This document shows, piece after piece, positions 82 through 13,320 of a stretch of 64,000 nt of DNA. The stretch spans positions 1,725,032 to 1,789,031 of the forward strand of contig CAXXWJ010000001.1 of assembly GCA_963665835.2 (NCBI GenBank), in the 5' to 3' direction. Below the pieces are notes generated by a model. It worked only from the letters and a program-made list of their open reading frames with translations, did no database searches and was not told the origin of the DNA. Origin of the DNA: Syntrophales bacterium. Its GTDB lineage: Bacteria > Desulfobacterota > Syntrophia > Syntrophales > UBA2210. The position numbers were made by a program, and so were the translations under genes. Each line of letters starts with the position of its first letter. Positions within the stretch are counted from its first letter, which is position 1.

Positions 82-1140
82 TCATGTCGGCACCACCTTC
101 GTTCCTCTCATGAGATTGAAGGCCATCTGCCGGAACATCGCATCTATGGCATTTTTGGCCAACTTGGGGAATCTGGCCCGAGAAGCGTTATTGTGAAGAT
201 GAGAAATGCCGAAATACTGTTCAACAATATAACGAACTTTCGGGATAGCCTTGTTTCGCTCTTTCTCATAGGTGGTCAGTTTTGCTGTAGTCGTGTTTTT
301 TCTCATGATGCCGTCCGCGATCTTGTTCAGGGCAAGAAATGCCCTGTTCGGTTCACCGAAGTAGCCCTTGTCGGCAAACACCTTTTTGACAGGTTCTTTC
401 GTATGACAACTGCCGGCAACACAGAACGGAAGGTAGGGGCTGTCATGGTGAGAGGCCGGAGTTATCTCCGTAGCAAGGACGAAACCATACCCGGTATCAA
501 CAGAGGCATGTTCTTTCAGACCAAAGTGGGGGACATCGTTTTTAACCGTCCAGTCGGATTCAATATCCCGGGAGTACTTAAGAGGTTTTCCATGTTTATC
601 AAGTTTGCCCTCTGGAGCTTCTCGATTTTGTTTTTCTTTTTTGAGATTCTCTTTAGTTATGGGATGGCTGGCCGACTGAACCAGGCGTGCGTCAATGGCT
701 ATGCCTTCGTTGATTGTTAGGCCCTTGGAGGCGAATTGGTTAAGGAGTTCATTATTGATCAGACGCATGGTATCTTTGGAGACTCTGCTCCTGACCCGGG
801 AAAAAGTAGAATGATCGGGCGAACGGTAATCAAAGGGAATCCCGAGGAACTTCTTGAAGGAGATACGATCATTGATCTGGGTTTCAAGTTCGGGATCGGA
901 ATCGATCTTGAACCACTGCTGAAGAAGAAGGCATTTCAGGAGTATAAGAGTAGAATAGGCGGCATTTCCTTCGGAGCTTTTCCCGACAGGATAGTTTCTC
1001 ATAATCAGGCGTTCAATTTTAGACCAGTCTGTAATAGCATTGATGGCGTCCATTCTTTCAATAGCCCGGTTATGTTCCATGGAAGAAAAGAGAGAGATAT
1101 CAGCGAAAGAGAGATTGTTTTCCAGTTTTTTGAAGCCCAT
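82..1140 (-). CDS. IS5-family (IS4/IS5 superfamily) DDE transposase
   Basis: ORF 82..1200. Start moved to Met21 (ATG at 1140, GGAGG just upstream). InsH-type N-terminus (NAAYSTLILLKCLLLQQWF, SDPELE) and DDE-type C-terminus (IDARLV, FADKGY, YIVEQYFG) as in IS5-group transposases. IS ends not located; the left end is probably outside the window. Confidence 0.85.
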   Translation of the reverse strand: MGFKKLENNLSFADISLFSSMEHNRAIERMDAINAITDWSKIERLIMRNYPVGKSSEGNAAYSTLILLKCLLLQQWFKIDSDPELETQINDRISFKKFLGIPFDYRSPDHSTFSRVRSRVSKDTMRLINNELLNQFASKGLTINEGIAIDARLVQSASHPITKENLKKEKQNREAPEGKLDKHGKPLKYSRDIESDWTVKNDVPHFGLKEHASVDTGYGFVLATEITPASHHDSPYLPFCVAGSCHTKEPVKKVFADKGYFGEPNRAFLALNKIADGIMRKNTTTAKLTTYEKERNKAIPKVRYIVEQYFGISHLHNNASRARFPKLAKNAIDAMFRQMAFNLMRGTKVVPT

Positions 1141-1604
1141 AGTTCCTCCGAGAGAATGTTTTTTAGGAAAAATTATGGCGCAATAGCAGGTAATAGTCAA
1201 GTAATATTAGTGGCATAGCTTTGAATAACGTGTTTTTAAGAAGAGATTCTGACATTACAAAAGAATAAAATTTGGTGGGTTGTGCAAAGGTCTCAAAAAG
1301 TGTTCGTCTGCTCCCGTCTCTCTGTCCAATCATGTACGCTCCCCATGGAGATTGATAGAGAAATCTTACCGCAGATAAACCATATTATCAAGTTATATTA
1401 TATGTTTATATTAAACTATCGCACCGCTTGCGTGATGCATCTCTGTTCAAACGAGATAACCTGTGATAGGATTTCTCAACAGACCCAGTTCCCCTAGATT
1501 TTAAGTTTTTCTTGTAATGTAGTATCAAACATTTTTAACGAGCATTCAACCTTTCAATCCGAAATAAATAACGATCTTTTTTCTGCTATTGGACAAATTA
1601 CCCA

Positions 1605-1620
1605 TAATATACCAACTTGG
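1605..1620. repeat. Left arm of a perfect 16-bp inverted repeat (TAATATACCAACTTGG), partner at 3073..3088
   Basis: Exact reverse complement of 3073..3088, read directly. The two arms bracket the ISNCY insertion plus ~120 bp of non-IS sequence. Confidence 0.9.
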
Positions 1621-1654
1621 CTCAAGTGGAATATTGCCACAAAATGCCAAGTGT

Positions 1655-1671
1655 CAAAAGTTCATTTTGCT
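1655..1671 (+). repeat. Left copy of the 16-17 bp direct repeat (CAAAAGTTCATTTTGC[T]) flanking the ISNCY element; putative target-site duplication
   Basis: Identical 17-mer at 2984..3000. It directly abuts both IS termini. Confidence 0.85.
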
Positions 1672-2983
1672 GTTAGCAACAAATAGATTTGTCCGGTTTT
1701 GTAGCAAATGAATTGTCCGCTTTGTACTGCTCTGAAAAGCTGCGGAAGTTGTAGGCTGGAGCAGCTTTTCAGAGGAAGTGGCGAGCGGCGGACTTACGCT
1801 GCCTTTTCCTTTCTCTTCTTGTTTTCTTTTAATTTTCCCTGTGCATCATAATCAGCCAATTTCCTCGGTCCGTGGAAAACGGACAGGGAGCCGTCTGTGT
1901 ACCGATGAACATGCACCTTTGCTCTGACATAATGGCATCTATAGAGATTTGATGGGATTTGCAGCGTTTTGCCTTCAAAGCTGACACAGTTATCGGCAGT
2001 TACTGTCCTCGGCAGCAGGTTGCATGAACTCAGCGTTGAATGCCGGCCTATAGACCTCAGCCAGATAACGGTTGGCAGCGTCCATTGTAGTGATTTTTTT
2101 CAGGGCCAGTTCTTTGGGAAGTCGACCTTGATGAGTGCTGAAGGGTCGTTCACTCCGTCCCCGTGCTTGAGGAGAGTAGGCAGCTATCATCTCAACCCCT
2201 AAATGCTTCATGGCACGACCAAACTGCGTAAGCTGCCCCTTACTTACTCTTCCACCGGTCTCAGGCGTATACCAGTAATGACTCCCACGATCGGTGTAGA
2301 GTGAACCGAACAGACCCCTTTGAAGAATCGTGTCACGCACCTCCTGAAAGCTGCTGGATGTGCCTTCTTCCTGAACAAAGAACATACTGTAGTGTTCGTT
2401 TGTCGCATCATCCATTGTAACGATCAGATCCCACTTCTTCCCCGGAACCCATTCATGGGTACTGCCGTCCTGATGCAACATCATCCCCGGCAATGGTGAA
2501 GGATCACGGCGTTTCCTGTGTGTGTCTTTCCTGGGAGCCTTGCTAACCAACCCTCTCGACTGTAGCGTGTTCTTGACCCAAGTGTAGCTTCTCCTCCCTC
2601 CGTCACGCTGGTACCATGAATAAAAATGCTTCACGTTCCAGCCCCGATACCGACCTTCATACTGCCGGGCAAGCGCCATAACTTCATCCACTGGTGCTCG
2701 ACGCGACGATGCCTGGGTTAATCGTTTGTCCAGCAATCCCTCCATACCGCTCTCCTCGTACCGATCAATGTAACGCCGGAACGTTCGGTCACATACTCCC
2801 AACATCCGCGCCGCTTCCTCCTGTGTTAATCGACCTTCCGTCCATACACCATAAGCCTCTTTAAATCGCATAATCCGGATCTCCTGTAGTATCTCTGTCC
2901 GTCTCATTGGTCACCTCCCGGTGCCTCATCCTAACCGGACAGATTACGTGCTACAACTCCGGACATATTACTTGCTCCTGACA
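1671..2983 (-). mobile_element. IS1202-like ISNCY-family insertion sequence, ~1.3 kb, internally deleted
   Basis: Imperfect terminal inverted repeats: 1671 TGTTAGCAACAAATAGATTTGTCCGGTTTTGTAGCAAATGAATTGTCCG versus the reverse complement of 2935..2983, TGTCAGGAGCAAGTAATATGTCCGGAGTTGTAGCACGTAATCTGTCCGG. Shared blocks are TGTCCGG..TTGTAGCA..TGTCCG. It encloses an rve-type transposase and is flanked by a 16-17 bp direct repeat. Confidence 0.8.
1794..2907 (-). pseudogene. ISNCY-family (HTH + rve integrase core) transposase, disrupted by an internal deletion/frameshift
   Basis: The 305-aa ORF (1990..2907) has an HTH (LTQEEAARMLGVCDRTFRRYIDRY) and a DDE core (LHQDGSTH, TMDDATN, LYTDRGSHY, ARGRSER). 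It stops at ..QPAAEDSNCR*. The family-typical C-terminus (RTVTADNCVSFEGKTLQIPSNLYRCHYVRAKVHVHRYTDGSLSVFHGPRKL..) continues in another frame down to the stop at 1794-1796. Confidence 0.75.
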
Positions 2984-3000
2984 CAAAAGTTCATTTTGCT
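2984..3000 (+). repeat. Right copy of the 16-17 bp direct repeat flanking the ISNCY element
   Basis: Identical to 1655..1671. Confidence 0.85.
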
Positions 3001-3072
3001 TGACATTTAAGCACTTTTCCCTTTGCATTCTTTTAAAAAAAGCGCGACACTCCCTGAGCAAACCGGAAAAAA

Positions 3073-3088
3073 CCAAGTTGGTATATTA
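3073..3088. repeat. Right arm of the 16-bp inverted repeat (CCAAGTTGGTATATTA)
   Basis: Exact reverse complement of 1605..1620. It is followed 3 nt later by GTTCTGC (3092..3098), then by the PHP-ATPase gene. Confidence 0.9.
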
Positions 3089-3116
3089 ATTGTTCTGCAG
3101 GGCCAAATTTAATTAA

Positions 3117-5261
3117 ATGAAAATCGACATACATTCTCATACCAAGAAATGCAAGTCAGGTGATGCACCCACAAGGGAAATTGCTCCTGATGATTTCTGC
3201 GAAACGCTTCAGTCCACTGAAGTAGGAATCATTGCGATCACCAATCATAATGTTTTCGATTTGGATCAATTTATAGAGATCGTGGACAGAATGGGTGATA
3301 ATGCCCAAGTTTGGCCGGGAGTAGAATTGGATGTCCAAGAGAATGGTGTGCGTGGACATTTGATAGTGATTGTCTCGCCCCAAGTGGCAAAAGAATTTTC
3401 CGAGAGCGTGGCTAAGATAACCGAAGGCTCCACTCCAGATAGCTTTAAGGGCACTATCGAGCAGGTTCTTGAAACATTCGATGAATTCAAGCCACTATAC
3501 GTGACACACTATAAGCAGAAGACGCCTAGCTTGTCTGATAAGGCACTTGAAAAGTTAATATCAGGGTCAGTGAATCCTGGACGAGTGATTAAGGAGGTAT
3601 CTAACGCGATTTCAGCAGGGATATACATTTCGCACGGTTACGCGTCAATCTACGGTTCCGACGTTCACGATTGGTCTACCTACGAAGAGCAAGCCAGTGG
3701 TCTGCCGGATCTCCGGCTTCCTATGGAGAGTTTTGACCATTTCTATTTACTGCTAGAGAAAGACCCAACAACTATTAATACCATATTAGACAAGAAGGTA
3801 GCAGAGGATCTTATTCTCACGCCATTTGAGGATTCCACTTTTTTAAAGCTCAAAGTTTTTAACGAAATCAACATCGTTTTTGGTCCGAAGGGAACAGGCA
3901 AATCCTGCATTCTTATGGCTATCGCAAAACATTATCGGGACTCCGGTATCGACGCAAATGTCTATGAATCGGCGAGCGACCGGCTTGATGAACTCTTTGA
4001 CACAAAAGGCCGAGATCTTTCTCTTAATCTCAATTCGCACGGAATAAATTATTGCAAAGATGAAATAGAAGCAATCAGAGAGGCATCCGAGGTCGGCGTC
4101 ACAAGCTTGTCTAAATACGAGATCTATTTTCGTATAAAATCTACAAATAAAAACGCGAAAAAAATTAAGCTCAAGGATATCGAGCCAGAAGAAGAAGGTG
4201 GCGCTAAGCGCGAATTCTTAGAATTTAATGAAGGTGTGACAAAAACGAGAGCATTCATTGAGTTCCTGCAAGAGCATCCGTCGGTAAAGAAGGAACTTAG
4301 TACGGAGGAAATCGAAGAGGTTACTCGTATTCTCTCAGGACTTCTTGAACGGATGGTTAATAGGGAGTGGGGTGGCTATTCTGGTTGGAAAGAAATCAAT
4401 TTATTGAATTCGGCCATTGAGAAATTTCGCACGGAGGTGGAACGAAAAACCGGATCGCCAGCCAAACCTATTACAACAGGATTTCGTGAGTATGCTCTTA
4501 ATCGGGTACGGATCGAAGCCAATGTCTCCGAAATCATTAAGAGTGTGGATACTAATATTCCAATACTTAAGGAGGCGGTGGGCAGTCTCGGGCCAAATAA
4601 AGGTGAATTGGAGTTACGGACGGAATTCAAATTCCAGGACGGTACAATTTCCGATGGGAGTCTCAATAAACTGAAGAATGTCAATAAAGGTCCGCAGAAA
4701 ACGTTTGCAAAGACAGTTCGGGAAATCCTCAAACATGCATATGAGGATGACCTTTTCCAGCACATAGCTGACCTCAACGTGATAGATGATGTTGAAAAAA
4801 TCGAAACCGTTTACGAACTGTTGCTCTTCAAGCGGTATTTCGCACTTAATGGACTACCTTATTCTCCATCAAGCGGCGAAGCTTCAATGGTTATGTTGCA
4901 AAAGGAACTGGAAACAGACAAGGAGGTTTACATTCTTGATGAACCGGAACGGAGCCTGGGTAACGAGTATATCAACGATGTGATCGTGCCTTTGATTAAG
5001 GAGCGTGCTCGTGCTGGAAAGAAAGTTATCATTTCGACCCATGATGCGAATATTGCAGTGCGTACACTTCCTTACAGCTCAGTATACCGCCTCCACGGAC
5101 CAGCCGGTTACACAACTTATATAGGAAACCCCTTCTCAAACAATCTAGTGAATCCGAATGATGAAGACGACTGGCTTGATTGGAAAAAGGTCAGCATGAA
5201 AACCCTTGAAGGTGGCGAAGAAGCATTTGGAGAGCGAGGAAAAATCTATGGAAACGGTTAA
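3117..5261 (+). CDS. PHP-domain phosphoesterase fused to an SMC/RecF-like ABC ATPase (Ppl-like candidate defence protein)
   Basis: 714 aa. The N-terminus has a full PHP metal-ligand series: DIHSHT, ITNHN, GVELD, RGHLIV, VTHY, GSDVHD. The ATPase part has Walker A GPKGTGKS (3882-3905), a long Lys/Glu-rich helical insert, ABC signature SPSSGEAS (4863-4886), Walker B VYILDEPE (4926-4949) and H-loop ISTHD. Confidence 0.8.
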   Translation: MKIDIHSHTKKCKSGDAPTREIAPDDFCETLQSTEVGIIAITNHNVFDLDQFIEIVDRMGDNAQVWPGVELDVQENGVRGHLIVIVSPQVAKEFSESVAKITEGSTPDSFKGTIEQVLETFDEFKPLYVTHYKQKTPSLSDKALEKLISGSVNPGRVIKEVSNAISAGIYISHGYASIYGSDVHDWSTYEEQASGLPDLRLPMESFDHFYLLLEKDPTTINTILDKKVAEDLILTPFEDSTFLKLKVFNEINIVFGPKGTGKSCILMAIAKHYRDSGIDANVYESASDRLDELFDTKGRDLSLNLNSHGINYCKDEIEAIREASEVGVTSLSKYEIYFRIKSTNKNAKKIKLKDIEPEEEGGAKREFLEFNEGVTKTRAFIEFLQEHPSVKKELSTEEIEEVTRILSGLLERMVNREWGGYSGWKEINLLNSAIEKFRTEVERKTGSPAKPITTGFREYALNRVRIEANVSEIIKSVDTNIPILKEAVGSLGPNKGELELRTEFKFQDGTISDGSLNKLKNVNKGPQKTFAKTVREILKHAYEDDLFQHIADLNVIDDVEKIETVYELLLFKRYFALNGLPYSPSSGEASMVMLQKELETDKEVYILDEPERSLGNEYINDVIVPLIKERARAGKKVIISTHDANIAVRTLPYSSVYRLHGPAGYTTYIGNPFSNNLVNPNDEDDWLDWKKVSMKTLEGGEEAFGERGKIYGNG

Positions 5262-5538
5262 AGCGACAGTTGTGGAGCTTGAAAAAAAACACTTCATCAA
5301 GATCGAATCCGGGGACGAAGAGATTAAGATCCCTATTTCTGAGGACAAACCGAATGAGGTCAAAAGTGCCTTCAATAAGCTGATCGTTAGAATCAAAGAA
5401 GGAGAGTTTGAGATTAAGTTGGAGGATATTGGCCAGGATCTGTTCTCTCAGGTAGCCTCAGAGTATGTCACTCAACTAAACCGTGAAATTCAGGAGGTAC
5501 GTGGCGAAATGGAGGACTATGGCTTGGTGGAAGATTAA
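5248..5538 (+). CDS. Small acidic hypothetical protein (96 aa), translationally coupled to the PHP-ATPase
   Basis: ATG at 5248 is preceded by GGAGAGCGAGGA and lies 14 nt inside the end of the upstream gene. Glu/Asp/Lys-rich, no TM segment, no motif recognised. The longer track ORF starts at 5206. Confidence 0.55.
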   Translation: METVKATVVELEKKHFIKIESGDEEIKIPISEDKPNEVKSAFNKLIVRIKEGEFEIKLEDIGQDLFSQVASEYVTQLNREIQEVRGEMEDYGLVED

Positions 5539-5599
5539 ATCCGCTCTCTAAAATTACTACTAGATACCGCCTGTCAATTAACAAAAATGAACAGCAATT

Positions 5600-5691
5600 G
5601 CAGAAGCAGGCGGTTCACTTGACGCCGTGGAGTGCGGCGGCGCTGACGCGGCAAGGTTTGGTGGCGGCGCAAGTGACTTTGGTCGTTAACC
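5600..5691 (+). repeat. attC-like site A (degenerate R'' box)
   Basis: R''-position box GCAGAAG (5600-5606), then a 6-nt spacer. L'' GTTCACTTGACGC (5613-5625) pairs with L' GCGCAAGTGAC (5667-5677), leaving two extrahelical bases. A 7-nt spacer precedes R' GTTAACC (5685-5691). The conserved AAC reads AAG. Confidence 0.6.
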
Positions 5692-5735
5692 CAATTATGC
5701 CAATTATTAATGAAATTATAAAAACTACTGTTGCT

Positions 5736-6110
5736 ATGAAAAAAAGGCTCTTATCCTGGTGGCTTGCCAACGTGCCTATTAGTTTTATTCTTTATTTTTT
5801 TTCATCAATATTATTTTATGAATTCTATCGGATTGGCATCGTAGCAGACCCGAAAGAGGTAGAAATGTACTATTTCGGCGGCGAAGCAATGATTGGACGT
5901 GGGGGGTGGAAATATGCTTCAGCAGGCGCTTACTCCTTATCTACTTTTGTTGGGTCCTTTTTATATTTATTAGCAGCTACAGGCTTTTTAGTTGCATATA
6001 AAAAACGGTCAAAATTATTTGTTGGCCTTGCAATTAGTATTTTACTAATGTCGTACTGTTCAGAAAAGTTGTTGAACTTGTGGTTCAAATATAAATATGG
6101 CCTTGGTTAA
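5736..6110 (+). CDS. Cassette-encoded small membrane protein (124 aa, ~4 predicted TM helices), unknown function
   Basis: Track ORF 5598..6110 reads through attC A, so the start was moved to MKKRLLSWW (5736; 5697 is also possible). Hydrophobic segments are visible. The stop TAA lies inside R'' GGTTAAC of attC B. Confidence 0.55.
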   Translation: MKKRLLSWWLANVPISFILYFFSSILFYEFYRIGIVADPKEVEMYYFGGEAMIGRGGWKYASAGAYSLSTFVGSFLYLLAATGFLVAYKKRSKLFVGLAISILLMSYCSEKLLNLWFKYKYGLG

Positions 6111-6170
6111 CCCGGCGCTAAAGCTGATAGCAGCCACAGGGGATGCTCCGCCTTAGCTGTAACGTTAGCG
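6105..6170 (+). repeat. attC-like site B (66 bp, canonical layout)
   Basis: Layout in order: R'' GGTTAAC, 5-nt spacer CCGGC, L'' GCTAAAG, central region, L' CTTAGC (one unpaired base relative to L''), 6-nt spacer TGTAAC, R' GTTAGCG (6164-6170). Confidence 0.75.
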
Positions 6171-6193
6171 ATCCAGTATAGGGAGGTGCCAAA

Positions 6194-6460
6194 ATGAAAC
6201 TAAATGTCAGAGCGTTTTCACTTACCTGCGGAATAGTTTGGGGCGTTGTTGTTTTTTTGTTGACCTGGTGGATAATCGCTTTTGATGGAGCAACTGGTGA
6301 TCCTACTTTCATTGGACGTCTGTATCGGGGGTTTACTATATCTCCAGTCGGCAGTTTCATTGGATTTATCTGGGCGTTTGTGGATGGTTTGATAGTAGGG
6401 GCAATTTTCGCTTGGTTCTATAATCTAATATCTAATCGCTTTTGGAAGACAGAATCATAA
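6194..6460 (+). CDS. Cassette-encoded small membrane protein (88 aa, 2 TM), unknown function
   Basis: GGGAGG sits 7 nt before the ATG. Two hydrophobic helices (GIVWGVVVFLLTWWIIAF and FIGFIWAFVDGLIVGAIFAWFY). It lies between attC B and attC C. Confidence 0.65.
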   Translation: MKLNVRAFSLTCGIVWGVVVFLLTWWIIAFDGATGDPTFIGRLYRGFTISPVGSFIGFIWAFVDGLIVGAIFAWFYNLISNRFWKTES

Positions 6461-6469
6461 ATCAGTTTC

Positions 6470-6552
6470 GGCTAACCATCCGGGAGCGGCTTTACGCATA
6501 AGTTTTTGGTTCGCGAACTGCCGAGAGCTGCGCCTCACCCAGAACGTTATGA
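6470..6552 (+). repeat. attC-like site C (83 bp)
   Basis: R'' GGCTAAC (6470-6476), 5-nt spacer, GGGAGCGGC pairing with GCGCCTCACCC (with bulges), then R' GTTATGA (6546-6552). Confidence 0.7.
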
Positions 6553-6568
6553 GCAAGGACGAAAACCA

Positions 6569-6914
6569 ATGGCATTTAGAGATGTTGAACTTCAGAAAGC
6601 AAAAAAGATAGTAGGCAGACTTTGTTAAGAAAAAAACGCCAACCGAACTTAAGGATCAATTGCTGGTTCAATATGAAATAGAAAAGCAAAACATCATTGT
6701 TTATGAGGTGTGTCCTGCTTGGAAAAATCCAACTGAATTCGCCAGAATGCCGTTGGCTAATTTGACTTATGTGAAAAGCTAAAATATATGGAAAATGTAT
6801 TGGAAAAGGGCAAATGGAACATGGGTTATATATGGGCCCAAAGGTACATCGAAGGATTTAGGGATTCTTGTGAAGGAAATTGAAAAATATGCTTATGGCT
6901 GCTTCTTTGGATAA
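6569..6914 (+). pseudogene. DUF3024-like cassette gene, inactivated
   Basis: Reads MAFRDVELQKAKKIVGRLC*, then shifts frame in an A-run to ..KTPTELKDQLLVQYEIEKQNIIVYEVCPAWKNPTEFARMPLANLTYVKS*NIWKMYWKRANGTWVIYGPKG..YAYGCFFG*. The pattern resembles the DUF3024 family common in integron cassettes (from memory). There are two premature stops plus one frameshift. Confidence 0.6.
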
Positions 6915-6921
6915 AATGGAC

Positions 6922-6981
6922 TCATAACACGTCACTAGTGCGGATGCGATATGGCCGCACCGCTTTTCGCTGACGTTGAAC
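6922..6981 (+). repeat. attC-like site D (60 bp)
   Basis: R'' TCATAAC (6922-6928). Stems ACGTCA/TGACGT and GTGCGG/CCGCAC. R' GTTGAAC (6975-6981), which fits GTTRRRY. Confidence 0.7.
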
Positions 6982-8555: not shown

Positions 8556-8935
8556 TTTATCTGGGCTTCCTTTATTTTTTTTCTATGGCCTGACTACCAC
8601 TGGCCGCACGTTACATTACTTCTGTACCTCCTACATTTGAATATAATTGACAAGACATTTTTTATAGTGCAGTAAATCGGAATCTTTCTATCAAGATCTT
8701 ATAGCCAATAGTCATAACCCCGAAATATATATCTCATTTAAGGATAGTAAGGGGCATGTCCTGGTAAAATCCATAAAGGGCTCTTCGGGAGTGGCTTAAA
8801 CAAAAGGTTCAACCAATTGCCATCGCTCTCGGGAGGAACCATTAAATTTTTCCACTTTCTTTCTTGACCGTCCTGTCTTTACCATGACAATAAGGACGCA
8901 TCCCTAATTAATCCATTCGTTAAAAGGATTTTCGC

Positions 8936-9190
8936 ATGAATTCCGAAAAAAATATATTGGGCACAGCCGTTTATCCCGATTATCACCAGTTGTTGAAGCT
9001 GGTACAGGCAAAGATGCCCTATGGAAAATATGCCGGTCGATATCTTGTGGATCTTCCCGAATCATATGTTGTCTGGTTTTCGCAGAAAGGCTTCCCACAG
9101 GACGAACTGGGTGATATGCTTCGTACGATCTACGAAATAAAAACAAACGGGCTCGAGCATCTTCTGGAACCGTTGAAAGGATCGCGGTAA
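8936..9190 (+). CDS. DUF3820 family protein
   Basis: MPYGKYAGRYLVDLPESYVVWFSQKGFPQDELGDML..IKTNGLEHLL matches the conserved DUF3820 pattern. Confidence 0.75.
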   Translation: MNSEKNILGTAVYPDYHQLLKLVQAKMPYGKYAGRYLVDLPESYVVWFSQKGFPQDELGDMLRTIYEIKTNGLEHLLEPLKGSR

Positions 9191-9195
9191 AAAGC

Positions 9196-9429
9196 ATGGA
9201 AACATTTGAATTCTTCGGTGAATATATTGAGCTGAACAAGCTGCTAAAGGCATCGGGGCTGTGTGAAACGGGGGGCATGGCAAAGATTGAAATTGAGAAC
9301 GGCATGATCAGGGTTGACGGAACAGTCGAATACAGGAAGCGATGCAAGATAAGAGATGGCCAGATGGTTCAGTATGGTGGCCGTAAGATCAAGGTGGTCG
9401 GTCCCGGAACTGAAGGTACGGAATCCTGA
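9196..9429 (+). CDS. S4-domain RNA-binding protein (YbcJ-like)
   Basis: YIELNKLLKASGLCETGGMAKIEIENGMIRVDGTVEYRKRCKIRDGQMV is a typical stand-alone S4 pattern. Confidence 0.75.
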   Translation: METFEFFGEYIELNKLLKASGLCETGGMAKIEIENGMIRVDGTVEYRKRCKIRDGQMVQYGGRKIKVVGPGTEGTES

Positions 9430-9497
9430 AGGTTTTAAGAAACTGCCGGTATGGAATGGCTTCCACCGGGCAAAATTCTGATTAAAGGACCATTTTC

Positions 9498-11276
9498 ATG
9501 TTTCTTCCCACCACGCAAAAGGAGATTAAAGCCCTGGGATGGAAATGGCTCGACGTCATCCTCATAACCGGCGACAGTTATATCGATTCGCCCTTCATCG
9601 GCGTTGCTGTCATCGGGAAAATTCTCCTAAGTGCCGGTTACCGGGTGGGTGTTATTGCCCAGCCCGGAAGGGTCTCTGGTGATGATATCAGCCGGTTGGG
9701 CGAACCTCGTCTGTTCTGGGGAGTCACAGGGGGCTGCATCGATTCGATGGTTGCCAACTATACAGCAGCGGGGCGGAAGCGCAGGAGTGACGATTATACG
9801 CCGGGTGGCTTAAACAACCGCCGCCCCGACAGGGCAACGATAGCCTACAGCAATCTTATAAGAACCCATTTCAAGGGAACAGTCCCCATTGTTCTCGGCG
9901 GTATCGAGGCAAGCCTGAGAAGGATAGCCCATTATGATTTCTGGTCCAATACGATAAGAAGATCAATTCTTTTTGACGCAAAGGCCGATTACCTTCTCTA
10001 TGGAATGGCGGACCGCTCCATAGTCGAGCTGGCTGACTGCCTCAAAGGGGGCGGTGATCCCCGTGCGGTTCGCGGGATCTGCTACGCCTCCCCCGATCTT
10101 GTCGAGGGCTGTCTGGAGCTGCCCGCTTTCGATTATGCGGCGCAAAGCAAAGAGGCCTTCACGGAAATGTTCCGTCTTTTCTATCGAAATAACGATCCAG
10201 TTACGGCCCTGCCGCTTGCGCAGAAGCAGGACAACCGCTATCTAATTCAGACCCCGCCGGCCTACAGCCTCTCCAGCCGGGAGCTGGACGCCGTGCATGA
10301 CCTGGACTATGAGAGGGATCTTCACCCCTATTACCGTGCAGAGGGTGAGGTCAAAGCACTGGATACAATAGGCTTTTCCATCGCAACCCATCGGGGATGC
10401 TACGGAGAGTGTAATTTCTGCGCCATAACGATCCATCAGGGGCGAAAGGTTACGTCCCGCAGCCGGGCTTCAATCCTTGGTGAAGCGGAAGCTTTTACGA
10501 GGCACCCGCGTTTTAAGGGTGTCATACAGGATGTGGGTGGGCCGACTGCCAACATGTACGGCATTGACTGTGACAGAAAAGAAAAACAGGGCGGCTGCCC
10601 GGGCAAGCGATGCCTCTTCCCGAAGATATGTTCCCAGCTCCCCATAGATCACAGGCAGCAAGCCTCTCTGCTTAAGGCGATTCGCGCAGTACAGGGTGTT
10701 AAGAAGGTATTTATCGCCTCGGGCATACGGCATGATCTTATCATGGCGGACAGGAAGAATGGCACGGACTACCTGAAGCAGGTTGTCCGCCATCACCTTT
10801 CGGGACAGATGAAACTGGCACCGGAGCATTCGGAGCCGCAAGTCCTTCAGAAAATGGGGAAATCGGGGAAAGATACGCTGCTCGCCTTCAGAGATCTTTT
10901 TTCAGACATTGCAAGCCGTGGAGAAAAGAAACAGTTCCTGACCTACTATATAATAGCCGCACATCCGGGATGTACAGAAGACGATATGGCAAGGCTCCGG
11001 TCCTTTGCCCTGGGAGAACTGCAATTCCTCCCCGAGCAGGTTCAGGTCTTTACGCCTACGCCTTCTACCTGGTCCACCCTGATGTACTGGACGGAACGTG
11101 ACCCCTTTTCAGGAAAGGCCTGTTTTGTAGAAAAAACATTCCGTGGCCGAGAAAGACAGAAGGAAATCCTGGCAGATCACAGGGCCAATAAGCAGCAACG
11201 GGAGCGATCGAGGTCAAAAAATCAGGGTGCCCATTCCCGTCCTGAAAATTATCGGAAGAAAGGACATCGCAGATGA
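9498..11276 (+). CDS. ygiQ: YgiQ-family radical SAM protein (UPF0313)
   Basis: The N-terminus MFLPTT..E.K..GW..LDVILITGDSYIDSPFIGVAVIGKIL and the CxxxCxxC cluster (CYGECNFCAI) are characteristic of YgiQ. It has a basic C-terminal tail. Confidence 0.9.
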   Translation: MFLPTTQKEIKALGWKWLDVILITGDSYIDSPFIGVAVIGKILLSAGYRVGVIAQPGRVSGDDISRLGEPRLFWGVTGGCIDSMVANYTAAGRKRRSDDYTPGGLNNRRPDRATIAYSNLIRTHFKGTVPIVLGGIEASLRRIAHYDFWSNTIRRSILFDAKADYLLYGMADRSIVELADCLKGGGDPRAVRGICYASPDLVEGCLELPAFDYAAQSKEAFTEMFRLFYRNNDPVTALPLAQKQDNRYLIQTPPAYSLSSRELDAVHDLDYERDLHPYYRAEGEVKALDTIGFSIATHRGCYGECNFCAITIHQGRKVTSRSRASILGEAEAFTRHPRFKGVIQDVGGPTANMYGIDCDRKEKQGGCPGKRCLFPKICSQLPIDHRQQASLLKAIRAVQGVKKVFIASGIRHDLIMADRKNGTDYLKQVVRHHLSGQMKLAPEHSEPQVLQKMGKSGKDTLLAFRDLFSDIASRGEKKQFLTYYIIAAHPGCTEDDMARLRSFALGELQFLPEQVQVFTPTPSTWSTLMYWTERDPFSGKACFVEKTFRGRERQKEILADHRANKQQRERSRSKNQGAHSRPENYRKKGHRR

Positions 11277-11506
11277 ATTCATGCAGGCACCTGAACCTTG
11301 TCCTTTTGGCGGAAAGGAAAAATGTTCTGCGCTGTCGACACTGCCATCTTACTATCAATGCTGACGAACTGTCCGAGCGGTATTGCCCGGAGTGTTTTCA
11401 GGTAAAGGGCAGGAGGAACTATGATTTTGATGAGGTCAAGCGGGAAGACGAGGGGAAAATCCGCTACCGCTGCGAGGATTGCGGTGCCATTATAGAGACC
11501 GAATGA
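11273..11506 (+). CDS. Small zinc-ribbon protein (four CxxC pairs)
   Basis: ATGA start/stop overlap with ygiQ. The Cys pairs are CRHC, CPEC and CEDC, plus N-terminal C/H residues. Confidence 0.6.
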   Translation: MNSCRHLNLVLLAERKNVLRCRHCHLTINADELSERYCPECFQVKGRRNYDFDEVKREDEGKIRYRCEDCGAIIETE

Positions 11507-11637
11507 CCGATGCAATGGCCCGTTGCGTTGCTGTTTTGATCTTATTTTTATATATTGTGGAGTCAGAGACAAACTGATAGAGAGGCTCTCGGCAAAATTT
11601 TGTACCGCCAAAATTTAAAAATCAAGAGGGGTATTTG

Positions 11638-13320
<1,683 letters not shown>

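Follow-up and report, generated by a model that had tools for sequence, protein, structure and literature searches.

Ppl (PplA) of Escherichia coli, reportedly described by Gao et al. in 2020, is said to combine a PHP domain and an NTPase in a single gene. The protein is reported to be an anti-phage 3′-5′ exonuclease of single-stranded DNA that is inhibited by nucleoside triphosphates (NTPs) and senses 3′-OH ends (PMC12904381). The second system to be considered is PDC-M49, a computational ‘guilt-by-embedding’ candidate in PADLOC. Here, we describe a two-gene locus in the genome of a Syntrophales bacterium (GCA_963665835.2, contig CAXXWJ010000001.1, positions 1,725,032 to 1,789,031 of the forward strand; the whole stretch of 64,000 nucleotides is called the window below). 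The locus encodes a 714-amino-acid (aa) PHP-nuclease/ABC-ATPase fusion and a 96-aa acidic partner, and the two genes together appear as one integron gene cassette (Table 1). We favour, at a probability of roughly 0.6, the reading that the pair is an autonomous, horizontally mobile module and a candidate for immunity against invading nucleic acid, be it phage or plasmid, in which a cassette-borne nuclease-ATPase is combined with a regulatory subunit. This reading is drawn from the architecture and motifs, the PDC-M49 layout, the obligate partner, the defence neighbourhoods of homologues, the carriage on mobile elements and the precedent of Ppl.

An earlier note, made from the letters of the window alone, had described the large protein as a PHP domain joined to an ABC/SMC-type ATPase. 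The open reading frame (ORF), the conservation of the family, an AlphaFold2 model and Foldseek searches all agree with this description, even though the Pfam evidence is thin: PF02811 (PHP) is borderline on residues 4-100 (E = 2.7e-5, 25.0 bits versus a cut-off of 26.4), and the whole protein yields weak matches to ABC_tran, AAA_21 and AAA_15. The domain calls gain their firmness from the family data and the model built on them. In an alignment of 55 sequences with 23-49% identity to the query, H6, H8, R20, T42-N43-H44, G68, E70 and D182 are invariant in the PHP part, as are G256, G261, K262, S585, G587, E588, D608, E609 and H642 in the ATPase part. The statement that all PHP metal ligands are intact therefore stands for H6 and H8 (the HxH motif), H44, E70 and D182 but has to be relaxed for H81 and H131, which are kept in ~85% of the family, and for H184, whose position is occupied by K or Q in most members. 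The Walker A motif starting at aa 256, the signature SSGE (585-588), the Walker B residues DEPE (608-611) and the H-loop (H642) were all confirmed, with invariant key residues. Two details of the note needed correction: the Walker A lysine is K262 rather than K261, and what had been taken for a helical insert of ~320 aa is N-lobe, a helical hairpin of ~120-135 aa and then the strands of the C-lobe.

The AlphaFold2 model of the large protein (81-sequence alignment; mean predicted local distance difference test score, pLDDT, 86.8) places these residues in recognisable folds. Its N-terminal 225 residues resemble PHP enzymes of the RNase AM/TrpH type in Foldseek searches (7ug9, E = 1.5e-6; 9etk), with further matches to BAD_1165 (3e0f) and Cv1693 (2yb1). 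The model and the alignment thus give the N-terminus what defines the PHP superfamily, that is, a predicted (beta/alpha)7 barrel with His, Asp and Glu metal ligands and a seemingly intact two-metal ligand set, and it is predicted to be a PHP phosphoesterase that depends on metal ions and has the RNase AM/TrpH type of structure. RNase AM/TrpH (YciV) is the best structural match to this region (template modelling score of 0.62 over the target for 7ug9) and has the metal-ligand motifs in common with it; in contrast to the window protein, however, these are stand-alone housekeeping enzymes without an ATPase, their sequence identity to the window PHP domain is 14-21%, and the last His of their DxH motif is not conserved in the window family. 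The C-terminal part of the model resembles the heads of RecN, JetC, cohesin SMC, AriA, Rad50 and PtuA, and AriA of PARIS is the solved protein closest to the family profile in a sequence-profile search of the PDB (E = 1.4e-13). With Walker A, signature, Walker B, D-loop, H-loop and an inter-lobe helical insertion all present, this part is predicted to be an ABC ATPase of the SMC/RecN/Rad50/AriA class. The insert consists of modelled helices at 361-386, 388-393, 396-445 and 456-477, the sequence has no CxxC hook, and the tail of the C-lobe is conserved as well (W689, E698, G699, R707, Y711). ABC ATPases with an intact signature motif dimerise head-to-head on ATP, and the invariance of every ABC catalytic motif in the family argues for ATP-driven head dimerisation here.

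The small gene begins within the end of the large one. The two ORFs overlap by 14 nucleotides (nt; 5248-5261), GGAG (5229-5232) and GAGG (5236-5239) precede the ATG, and the product has an isoelectric point (pI) of 4.5, with 24 acidic versus 13 basic residues, all in line with the earlier note, which had seen a 96-aa acidic ORF behind its own GGAG-type site. Taken together, the layout reads as that of translationally coupled genes. The protein has 732 homologues at E<=1e-3; among the 120 matches listed, identity ranges from 70 to 100% and query coverage from 97 to 100%. Its AlphaFold2 model (pLDDT 90.4) shows a beta-beta-beta-alpha-beta-alpha fold.

That the two genes belong together is shown by their co-occurrence. 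A survey with a partner hidden Markov model covered 80 species-representative genomes, obtained by pattern-scan retrieval from at least 553 confirmed relatives: all 79 species-level loci that could be evaluated have the partner downstream of the large gene, the 80th being cut by the end of its contig. In every locus opened individually, i.e. eight of the close clade, five of a 33-35% identical clade (gut Firmicutes and others), a Photobacterium plasmid (51% identity) and Staphylococcus aureus plasmids (27%), it follows immediately and overlaps the large gene. The partner is present even beside large-gene homologues of 22-35% identity. Partners from distant clades have only ~22-25% identity, with the C-terminal helix motif L..V..EYI..LN.EI..V kept, and their acidity is retained family-wide (median pI 4.6, net charge never positive). 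By this conservation pattern, the small ORF is a real, obligate and strictly co-conserved partner. Searches for relatives outside the family returned no PDB sequence match and no Foldseek structural match in the PDB (best E = 0.018) or among the predicted viral structures of BFVD (best E = 0.009). A weak PADLOC match to LmuC (E = 1.2e-4, 36 residues, 50-85) was not reproduced with three distant partners, by the structure search or by the PDB sequence search. These searches gave no ground for reading the small protein as an LmuC, a kleisin or a DNA mimic.

The genomic setting adds mobility to this picture. The pair had been placed between two insertion sequences (ISs) and a cassette array; two IS-type ORFs do lie upstream and an array downstream, but the pair is not merely adjacent to the array and reads as a cassette itself, the first of at least four. 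Its boundaries were determined by comparing the window with all retrieved loci by blastn and then aligning the edges. The nearest relatives (L018, L019/L004, L005-7, L008, L020) are homologous to the window at the DNA level from ~3084-3092 up to 5605-5691, and these limits do not change whether the flanks are a conjugative element, an integrative and conjugative element (ICE) or an integrase island. The left edge common to the relatives, G/TTCTGCAGG (the slash marks the edge), lies 27 nt before the ATG and is preceded by unrelated sequence. At the right edge, the relatives have a ~60-nt conserved spacer, GCAGAAC, a bulged imperfect inverted repeat, a loop of variable length and ...GTCG/TT, after which they diverge. 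GCAGAAC in the relatives is the exact reverse complement of GTTCTGC at the 5′ end of the cassette; the window has GCAGAAG. This R''-L''-variable loop-L'-R' anatomy, with the crossover between G and TT, identifies the right edge as a putative attC site, and the cassettes that follow end in the same manner (Table 1). That two matches of 7/7 and two of 6/7 should turn up by chance in the ~100 nt behind the respective ORFs has a probability of the order of 1e-6. Folding z-scores of the attC hairpins range from +0.6 to -2.2 and are not significant by themselves, and the cassette call is thus based on the homology boundaries and R''/R' complementarity instead of folding energy. A reading of the 3′ hairpin as a terminator was discarded, as there is no terminator-like site at 5600..5691.

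Independent confirmation of cassette carriage comes, as far as sequence can tell, from the chromosome of a gammaproteobacterial metagenome-assembled genome (MAG; locus L061, OZ242267.1), in which a 50% identical pair (9942-12426) adjoins an integron integrase. The integrase, a divergently oriented 320-aa ORF (8836-9798) ~200 bp upstream of the pair, has IntI4 (2A3V) as its best PDB match over its full length (E = 7e-77), compared with ~1e-28 for XerC-like proteins. The pair is the first cassette there as well: GTTAGAT at 9942-9948 is matched 7/7 by ATCTAAC at 12420-12426, 4 nt past the stop codon of the partner. A crude motif scan of the window found no IntI-like ORF, and IS elements occupy the upstream side. 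The nearer of these, bounded by the terminal inverted repeats TAATATACCAACTTGG (1605-1620) and CCAAGTTGGTATATTA (3073-3088), ends 4 nt from the G/TT crossover of cassette 1 and consequently sits where a preceding attC or attI should be.

Table 1. Positions of the gene pair, its domains and sites, and the neighbouring mobile elements in the window
Feature	Position	Strand	Basis or remark
Whole integron-type gene cassette with both genes, 2593 bp	3093..5685	+	DNA homology boundaries
Large gene, 714-aa PHP-nuclease/ABC-ATPase fusion (predicted)	3117..5261	+	ATG-initiated ORF
PHP domain, aa 1 to ~225	3117..3791	+	Pfam PHP, family conservation, Foldseek
ABC ATPase N-lobe; Walker A GPKGTGKS, aa 256-263 (nt 3882-3905)	3834..4151	+	
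Helical, short coiled-coil-like insert, aa ~346-480	4152..4556	+	AlphaFold2 secondary structure
ABC ATPase C-lobe; SSGE nt 4869-4880, Walker B YILDEPE nt 4926-4946, H-loop nt 5040-5042	4557..5258	+	
Shine-Dalgarno-like GGAGAGCGAGG inside the large gene near its stop, 8 nt ahead of the small ATG	5229..5239	+	
Small gene, 96-aa acidic partner, conserved ATG at 5248	5248..5538	+	Homologues, downstream position, AlphaFold2 model
attC site of the pair's cassette (putative)	5600..5691	+	R'' GCAGAAG 5600-5606, bulged imperfect inverted repeat, variable loop, R' GTTAACC 5685-5691
Cassette 2, begins TTAACC	5686-6164	+	R'' GGTTAAC 6105-6111 versus GTTAACC, 7/7
Cassette 3, begins TTAGCG	6165-6546	+	R'' GGCTAAC 6470-6476 versus expected CGCTAAC, 6/7
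Cassette 4, begins TTATGA	6547-6975	+	R'' TCATAAC 6922-6928 versus GTTATGA, 7/7
Insertion sequence	1605..3088	-	Perfect 16-nt terminal inverted repeats; helix-turn-helix-type transposase ORF 1990-2907
Second insertion sequence, IS5-type transposase	82-1200		

The best PADLOC match of the large protein is PDC-M49A (E = 2.2e-37, 127 bits, in two stretches), which bears out the suspicion of the earlier note that a defence candidate was at hand, and the layout of two genes is the same. True PDC-M49 loci, found on plasmids of Rhizobium and Enterococcus, consist of a 674-aa PHP-ATPase and an acidic ORF of ~98 aa that matches PDC-M49B at 1e-30; in the intact Rhizobium locus, the small ORF overlaps the large gene. 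PDC-M49 and the window family thus have in common an N-terminal PHP domain, an ABC ATPase with a helical insert (~675-715 aa in all) and then an overlapping acidic ORF of ~97 aa. The profile is collinear with the window family, residues 2-707 of the relative P0441 aligning with profile positions 3-671, and both occur in defence-type neighbourhoods. Yet, although homologous to PDC-M49A, the window protein lies far outside the core family, true members of which score 854 bits (Rhizobium) and 650 bits (Enterococcus). The small protein of the window has no PDC-M49B match at E<=10, four other partners (three distant ones and that of Photobacterium) have none at E<=0.001, and its assignment to PDC-M49B was rejected at an hhalign profile-profile probability of 0.6%. 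Judged by these profiles, the window family is a sister group of PDC-M49 whose small partners, in every case examined, are missed by PDC-M49B. In the literature, we found no experimental trial of PDC-M49, no relevant work on TrlF or PDC-M49 and no paper describing a system of PHP-ATPase and small protein. Membership of the TrlF family (NCBIfam NF045780) was rejected, with 89.8 bits over four stretches (best at residues 2-103) against a cut-off of 350.

An apparently decayed copy can also be observed: on the Enterococcus faecalis plasmid p1_EfsC23_rep9a (L017, 4995-7319), a 558-aa PDC-M49A homologue is truncated at the C-lobe and lies ~350 bp from its PDC-M49B gene; this copy is widespread in ~29 Enterococcus plasmids.

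Ppl, like the window protein, unites a PHP phosphoesterase with a P-loop ATPase of the ABC type in one polypeptide, and both follow the scheme in which a nucleotide-binding domain gates a nuclease (PMC12904381, PMC11482910). The earlier proposal of a Ppl-like or related sensor-effector accordingly survives with regard to the nuclease-ABC ATPase architecture and the candidacy for defence but not as membership by profile. The PADLOC profile of Ppl (PDLC02208, 894 positions) finds nothing in residues 1-240 at E<=10, is missing from the 25 best PADLOC families for the whole large protein and, in the distant relatives P0441 and P0424, covers only ~90 residues of the C-lobe (E = 1.4e-6 and 3.4e-6). 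Moreover, Ppl is a single-gene system, whereas the window family has a protein of 714 aa and an obligate second gene, and the identification of the pair as Ppl was rejected for these reasons, Ppl being regarded as a distant relative. The 3′-5′ exonuclease activity on single-stranded DNA and the inhibition by NTPs are properties reported for Ppl; it is plausible that the pair works in a similar way.

Lamassu (LmuA/LmuB/LmuC, equal to DdmABC) and its ancestor, SbcCD/Mre11-Rad50, offer another comparison, as both have an SMC/Rad50-class ATPase, a nuclease and a small accessory subunit. There, however, the nuclease is a separate Cap4, Mre11 or other effector, compared with a PHP domain fused in cis in the window protein. 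SbcCD/Mre11-Rad50 furthermore has a long coiled coil with a CxxC zinc hook and a separate calcineurin-type nuclease; the insert of the window protein measures ~120-135 aa and has no CxxC. The pair has no LmuA or LmuB profile match, and Lamassu was rejected on this count and because the LmuC match is weak and irreproducible, just as SbcCD/Mre11-Rad50 was rejected for the short insert, the missing CxxC and the fused PHP nuclease. The LmuC subunit of Lamassu contacts both DNA and the coiled coil (PMC12663957). PARIS, finally, is likewise a two-gene system of ATPase and nuclease, and its AriA is both the closest solved relative of the window ATPase by sequence profile and a Foldseek match. In PADLOC, the AriA match is weak (~1e-6), and AriB is a TOPRIM nuclease, whereas the window nuclease is a fused PHP domain and its partner a 96-aa non-enzymatic protein. 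With no TOPRIM gene in the cassette, PARIS was rejected too.

The distribution of the family is sporadic and patchy. Members of the close clade are 70-91% identical and almost always exactly 714 aa long, and they are found in Desulfobacterota, Gamma-, Beta- and Alphaproteobacteria, Verrucomicrobiota, Planctomycetota, Zixibacteria, Nitrospirota and Nitrospinota as well as in MAGs of Bacteroidota and Firmicutes; isolates include Paracidovorax avenae, Variovorax paradoxus, Vibrio albus and Shewanella gaetbuli. The whole family comprises ~200 clusters at 50% identity (E<1e-30). At least 553 species-level genomes carry the pair. Near-identity across phyla points to horizontal transfer, and the pair is indeed carried by a TrwC/T4CP conjugative element and an ICEclc-type ICE, inside conjugation gene clusters, and on plasmids. 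A tblastn search of 50,697 phage genome records did not detect it. The mobile, accessory context claimed for the locus is therefore well founded, given ICEs, plasmids, cassette carriage and the defence genes beside homologues. Among 130 immediate neighbours from 22 genomes, strong matches include QatB/C/D, a CBASS cyclase, Drt8, AbiEii, NERD+UvrD and HNH; other homologues lie near Vsr/Dcm/Eco47II with SIR2, near TIR, AbiEi/AbiEii and YobI, or near Gabija, MutH-type restriction-modification (RM) genes and helicases, and plasmid-borne ones near Eco57I/PstI RM, AbiH and DUF4238. No conserved third gene emerged, as none of the 145 Pfam families among these 130 neighbours occurred more than twice. 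Integrons are documented reservoirs of defence systems, according to a bioRxiv preprint (10.64898/2026.03.17.712381, citing Kieffer 2025, Darracq 2025 and Getz 2025).

Several individual loci deserve mention. In Coraliomargarita (L001, 1391-17675), the pair lies in a ~16-kb island between rpsJ (S10) and rplC (L3), and in a gut Firmicutes genome (L009/L010, 1-9422) an island with the pair and Eco47II RM begins right after fusA-tuf; the str/S10 operon boundary may be a recurrent insertion hotspot. The S. aureus plasmid pCOL52-A5 (L015, 5001-7407) and four similar ones carry a full-length, 27%-identical homologue with an overlapping 100-aa partner, adjoining IS257 and Fst toxins in L015 and annotated as hypothetical proteins only. 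In several other S. aureus plasmids, nothing but the final ~130 residues is left, apparently as remnants of a truncated gene.

If the pair is an immune module, the following mechanism can be envisaged. Two large subunits would dimerise head-to-head on ATP, with the ATPase acting as a sensor or switch that responds to DNA ends or structures, or to the nucleotide state, for which Lamassu LmuB, SbcC/Rad50 and Ppl provide precedents. The ATPase would gate the PHP domain, which would degrade nucleic acid exonucleolytically. The small acidic subunit might dock on the ATPase via the helix conserved near its C-terminus (aa 65-90), the probable contact being the hairpin or the conserved tail of the large protein (aa 689-711), and either hold the nuclease inactive or set its specificity. 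The outcome would be destruction of the invader's nucleic acid or abortive infection. A bolder version, which we consider doubtful, is that the pair would be a minimal immune machine complete in itself, a one-polypeptide equivalent of SbcCD/Lamassu that senses DNA ends or structures, in which the PHP nuclease is joined to a Rad50/SMC-like head and a 96-aa gate of undescribed fold replaces the LmuC/kleisin-type subunit, and which travels as a promoterless cassette through at least ten phyla almost unchanged.

Other functions have to be weighed against immunity. The tight translational coupling, the strict co-occurrence of the two genes and a partner that is small and acidic family-wide would also suit a toxin-antitoxin (TA) or addiction module, in which the PHP-ATPase is a toxic nuclease and the acidic protein its antitoxin, with the effect of stabilising the array, ICE or plasmid that carries them instead of sensing phage. 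TA cassettes are common on plasmids, ICEs and integron arrays, on all of which the pair occurs, and the copies in S. aureus and P. damselae lie among Fst and Hok toxins. Yet typical TA toxins are far smaller and simpler than a 714-aa, ATP-driven protein with an SMC-like head, Foldseek searches of the PDB and BFVD gave the partner neither a DNA-binding fold nor that of a known antitoxin, and the cassette is promoterless, whereas TA cassettes usually have their own promoter. We therefore regard this explanation as unlikely, keeping in mind that TA function and abortive-infection defence are not mutually exclusive. Competition between mobile elements in the manner of Wadjet or DdmABC, in which the targets would be plasmids or integrative elements rather than phages and the beneficiary the carrier ICE or plasmid, seems to us quite improbable. 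It would account for the location of the pair on plasmids and, in an ICE and a conjugative element, amid the conjugation genes, for its absence from the phage genomes searched and for the likeness of the ATPase head to JetC, RecN and Rad50; the helical insert, however, is short (~120-135 aa) and no SMC arm of the loop-extruding kind, partners of the kleisin/KITE or JetA/B type are missing, and many copies are chromosomal and lie beside anti-phage systems. An accessory role in DNA or RNA repair or processing, be it as an SbcCD-like processor of ends and hairpins or as an RNase AM-like maturation nuclease, with no part in any conflict, can draw on the PHP domain being structurally closest to RNase AM/TrpH and pAp phosphatase, on the ATPase fold being closest to RecN and Rad50 and on the housekeeping genes among some neighbours. 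The patchy distribution without conserved neighbours, the carriage on a mobile cassette and other mobile genetic elements, the horizontal transfer implied by cross-phylum near-identity and the lack of a zinc hook and an Mre11-type partner make it very improbable indeed.

Immunity remains the reading that we prefer, and several observations weigh against it. As the cassette has no promoter, its 5′ leader being only 27 nt long, and an IS separates it from any promoter upstream, the pair may lack expression in this window. In the closer clade, the genes directly beside the pair differ greatly from locus to locus, housekeeping genes such as those for PEPCK and enolase among them, and the enrichment in defence islands is a qualitative statement without a matched control. 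An identity of 70-91% and a fixed length of 714 aa across phyla are unusually conservative for a gene engaged in an arms race. The fold matches of the PHP domain are enzymes that process RNA and nucleotides, and the role of the small protein is one that we infer. Finally, of eight randomly chosen PADLOC candidates, only four protected E. coli in one study (PMC12881386).

The remaining cassettes and the upstream IS carry features of their own. The ORF of cassette 2 (ATG 5737 to 6110) encodes a membrane protein of ~124 aa without a match in Pfam, NCBIfam or PADLOC; a TTG at 5598, inside the attC of cassette 1, is probably a spurious start for this ORF. Cassette 3 encodes an 88-aa membrane protein (6194-6460) that matches the NCBIfam bacteriophage holin model holin_4 (85.7 bits versus a cut-off of 70, E = 2.2e-24). 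Cassette 4 has a perfect R''/R' pair and no ORF of at least 50 aa, and looks degraded or non-coding. A fifth cassette past 6976 was rejected for want of a convincing attC, the GTTCAAC at 8806-8812 having no paired GTT end and probably being there by chance. The nearer IS contains a 17-nt direct repeat, with copies at 1655-1671 and 2984-3000.

What appears to be new here is a discrete integron cassette with cross-phylum spread that represents a large sister family of the PADLOC candidate PDC-M49. If active, the pair would add a compact, 2.6-kb two-gene member to the immune systems of the PHP-nuclease/ATPase class, in which studies have so far been confined to the single-gene Ppl. Its carriers comprise at least 553 species-level genomes plus clinical S. 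aureus and Enterococcus plasmids. The obligate small partner, set against Ppl, would serve as a natural experiment in the gating of a fused nuclease by an SMC/Rad50-like ATPase. As a multi-gene, defence-type unit that spreads in the form of an integron cassette through environmental Desulfobacterota, Gamma- and Betaproteobacteria, Verrucomicrobiota, Planctomycetota and others, it would widen the picture of integrons as ‘defence biobanks’ beyond Vibrio and clinical class 1 integrons.

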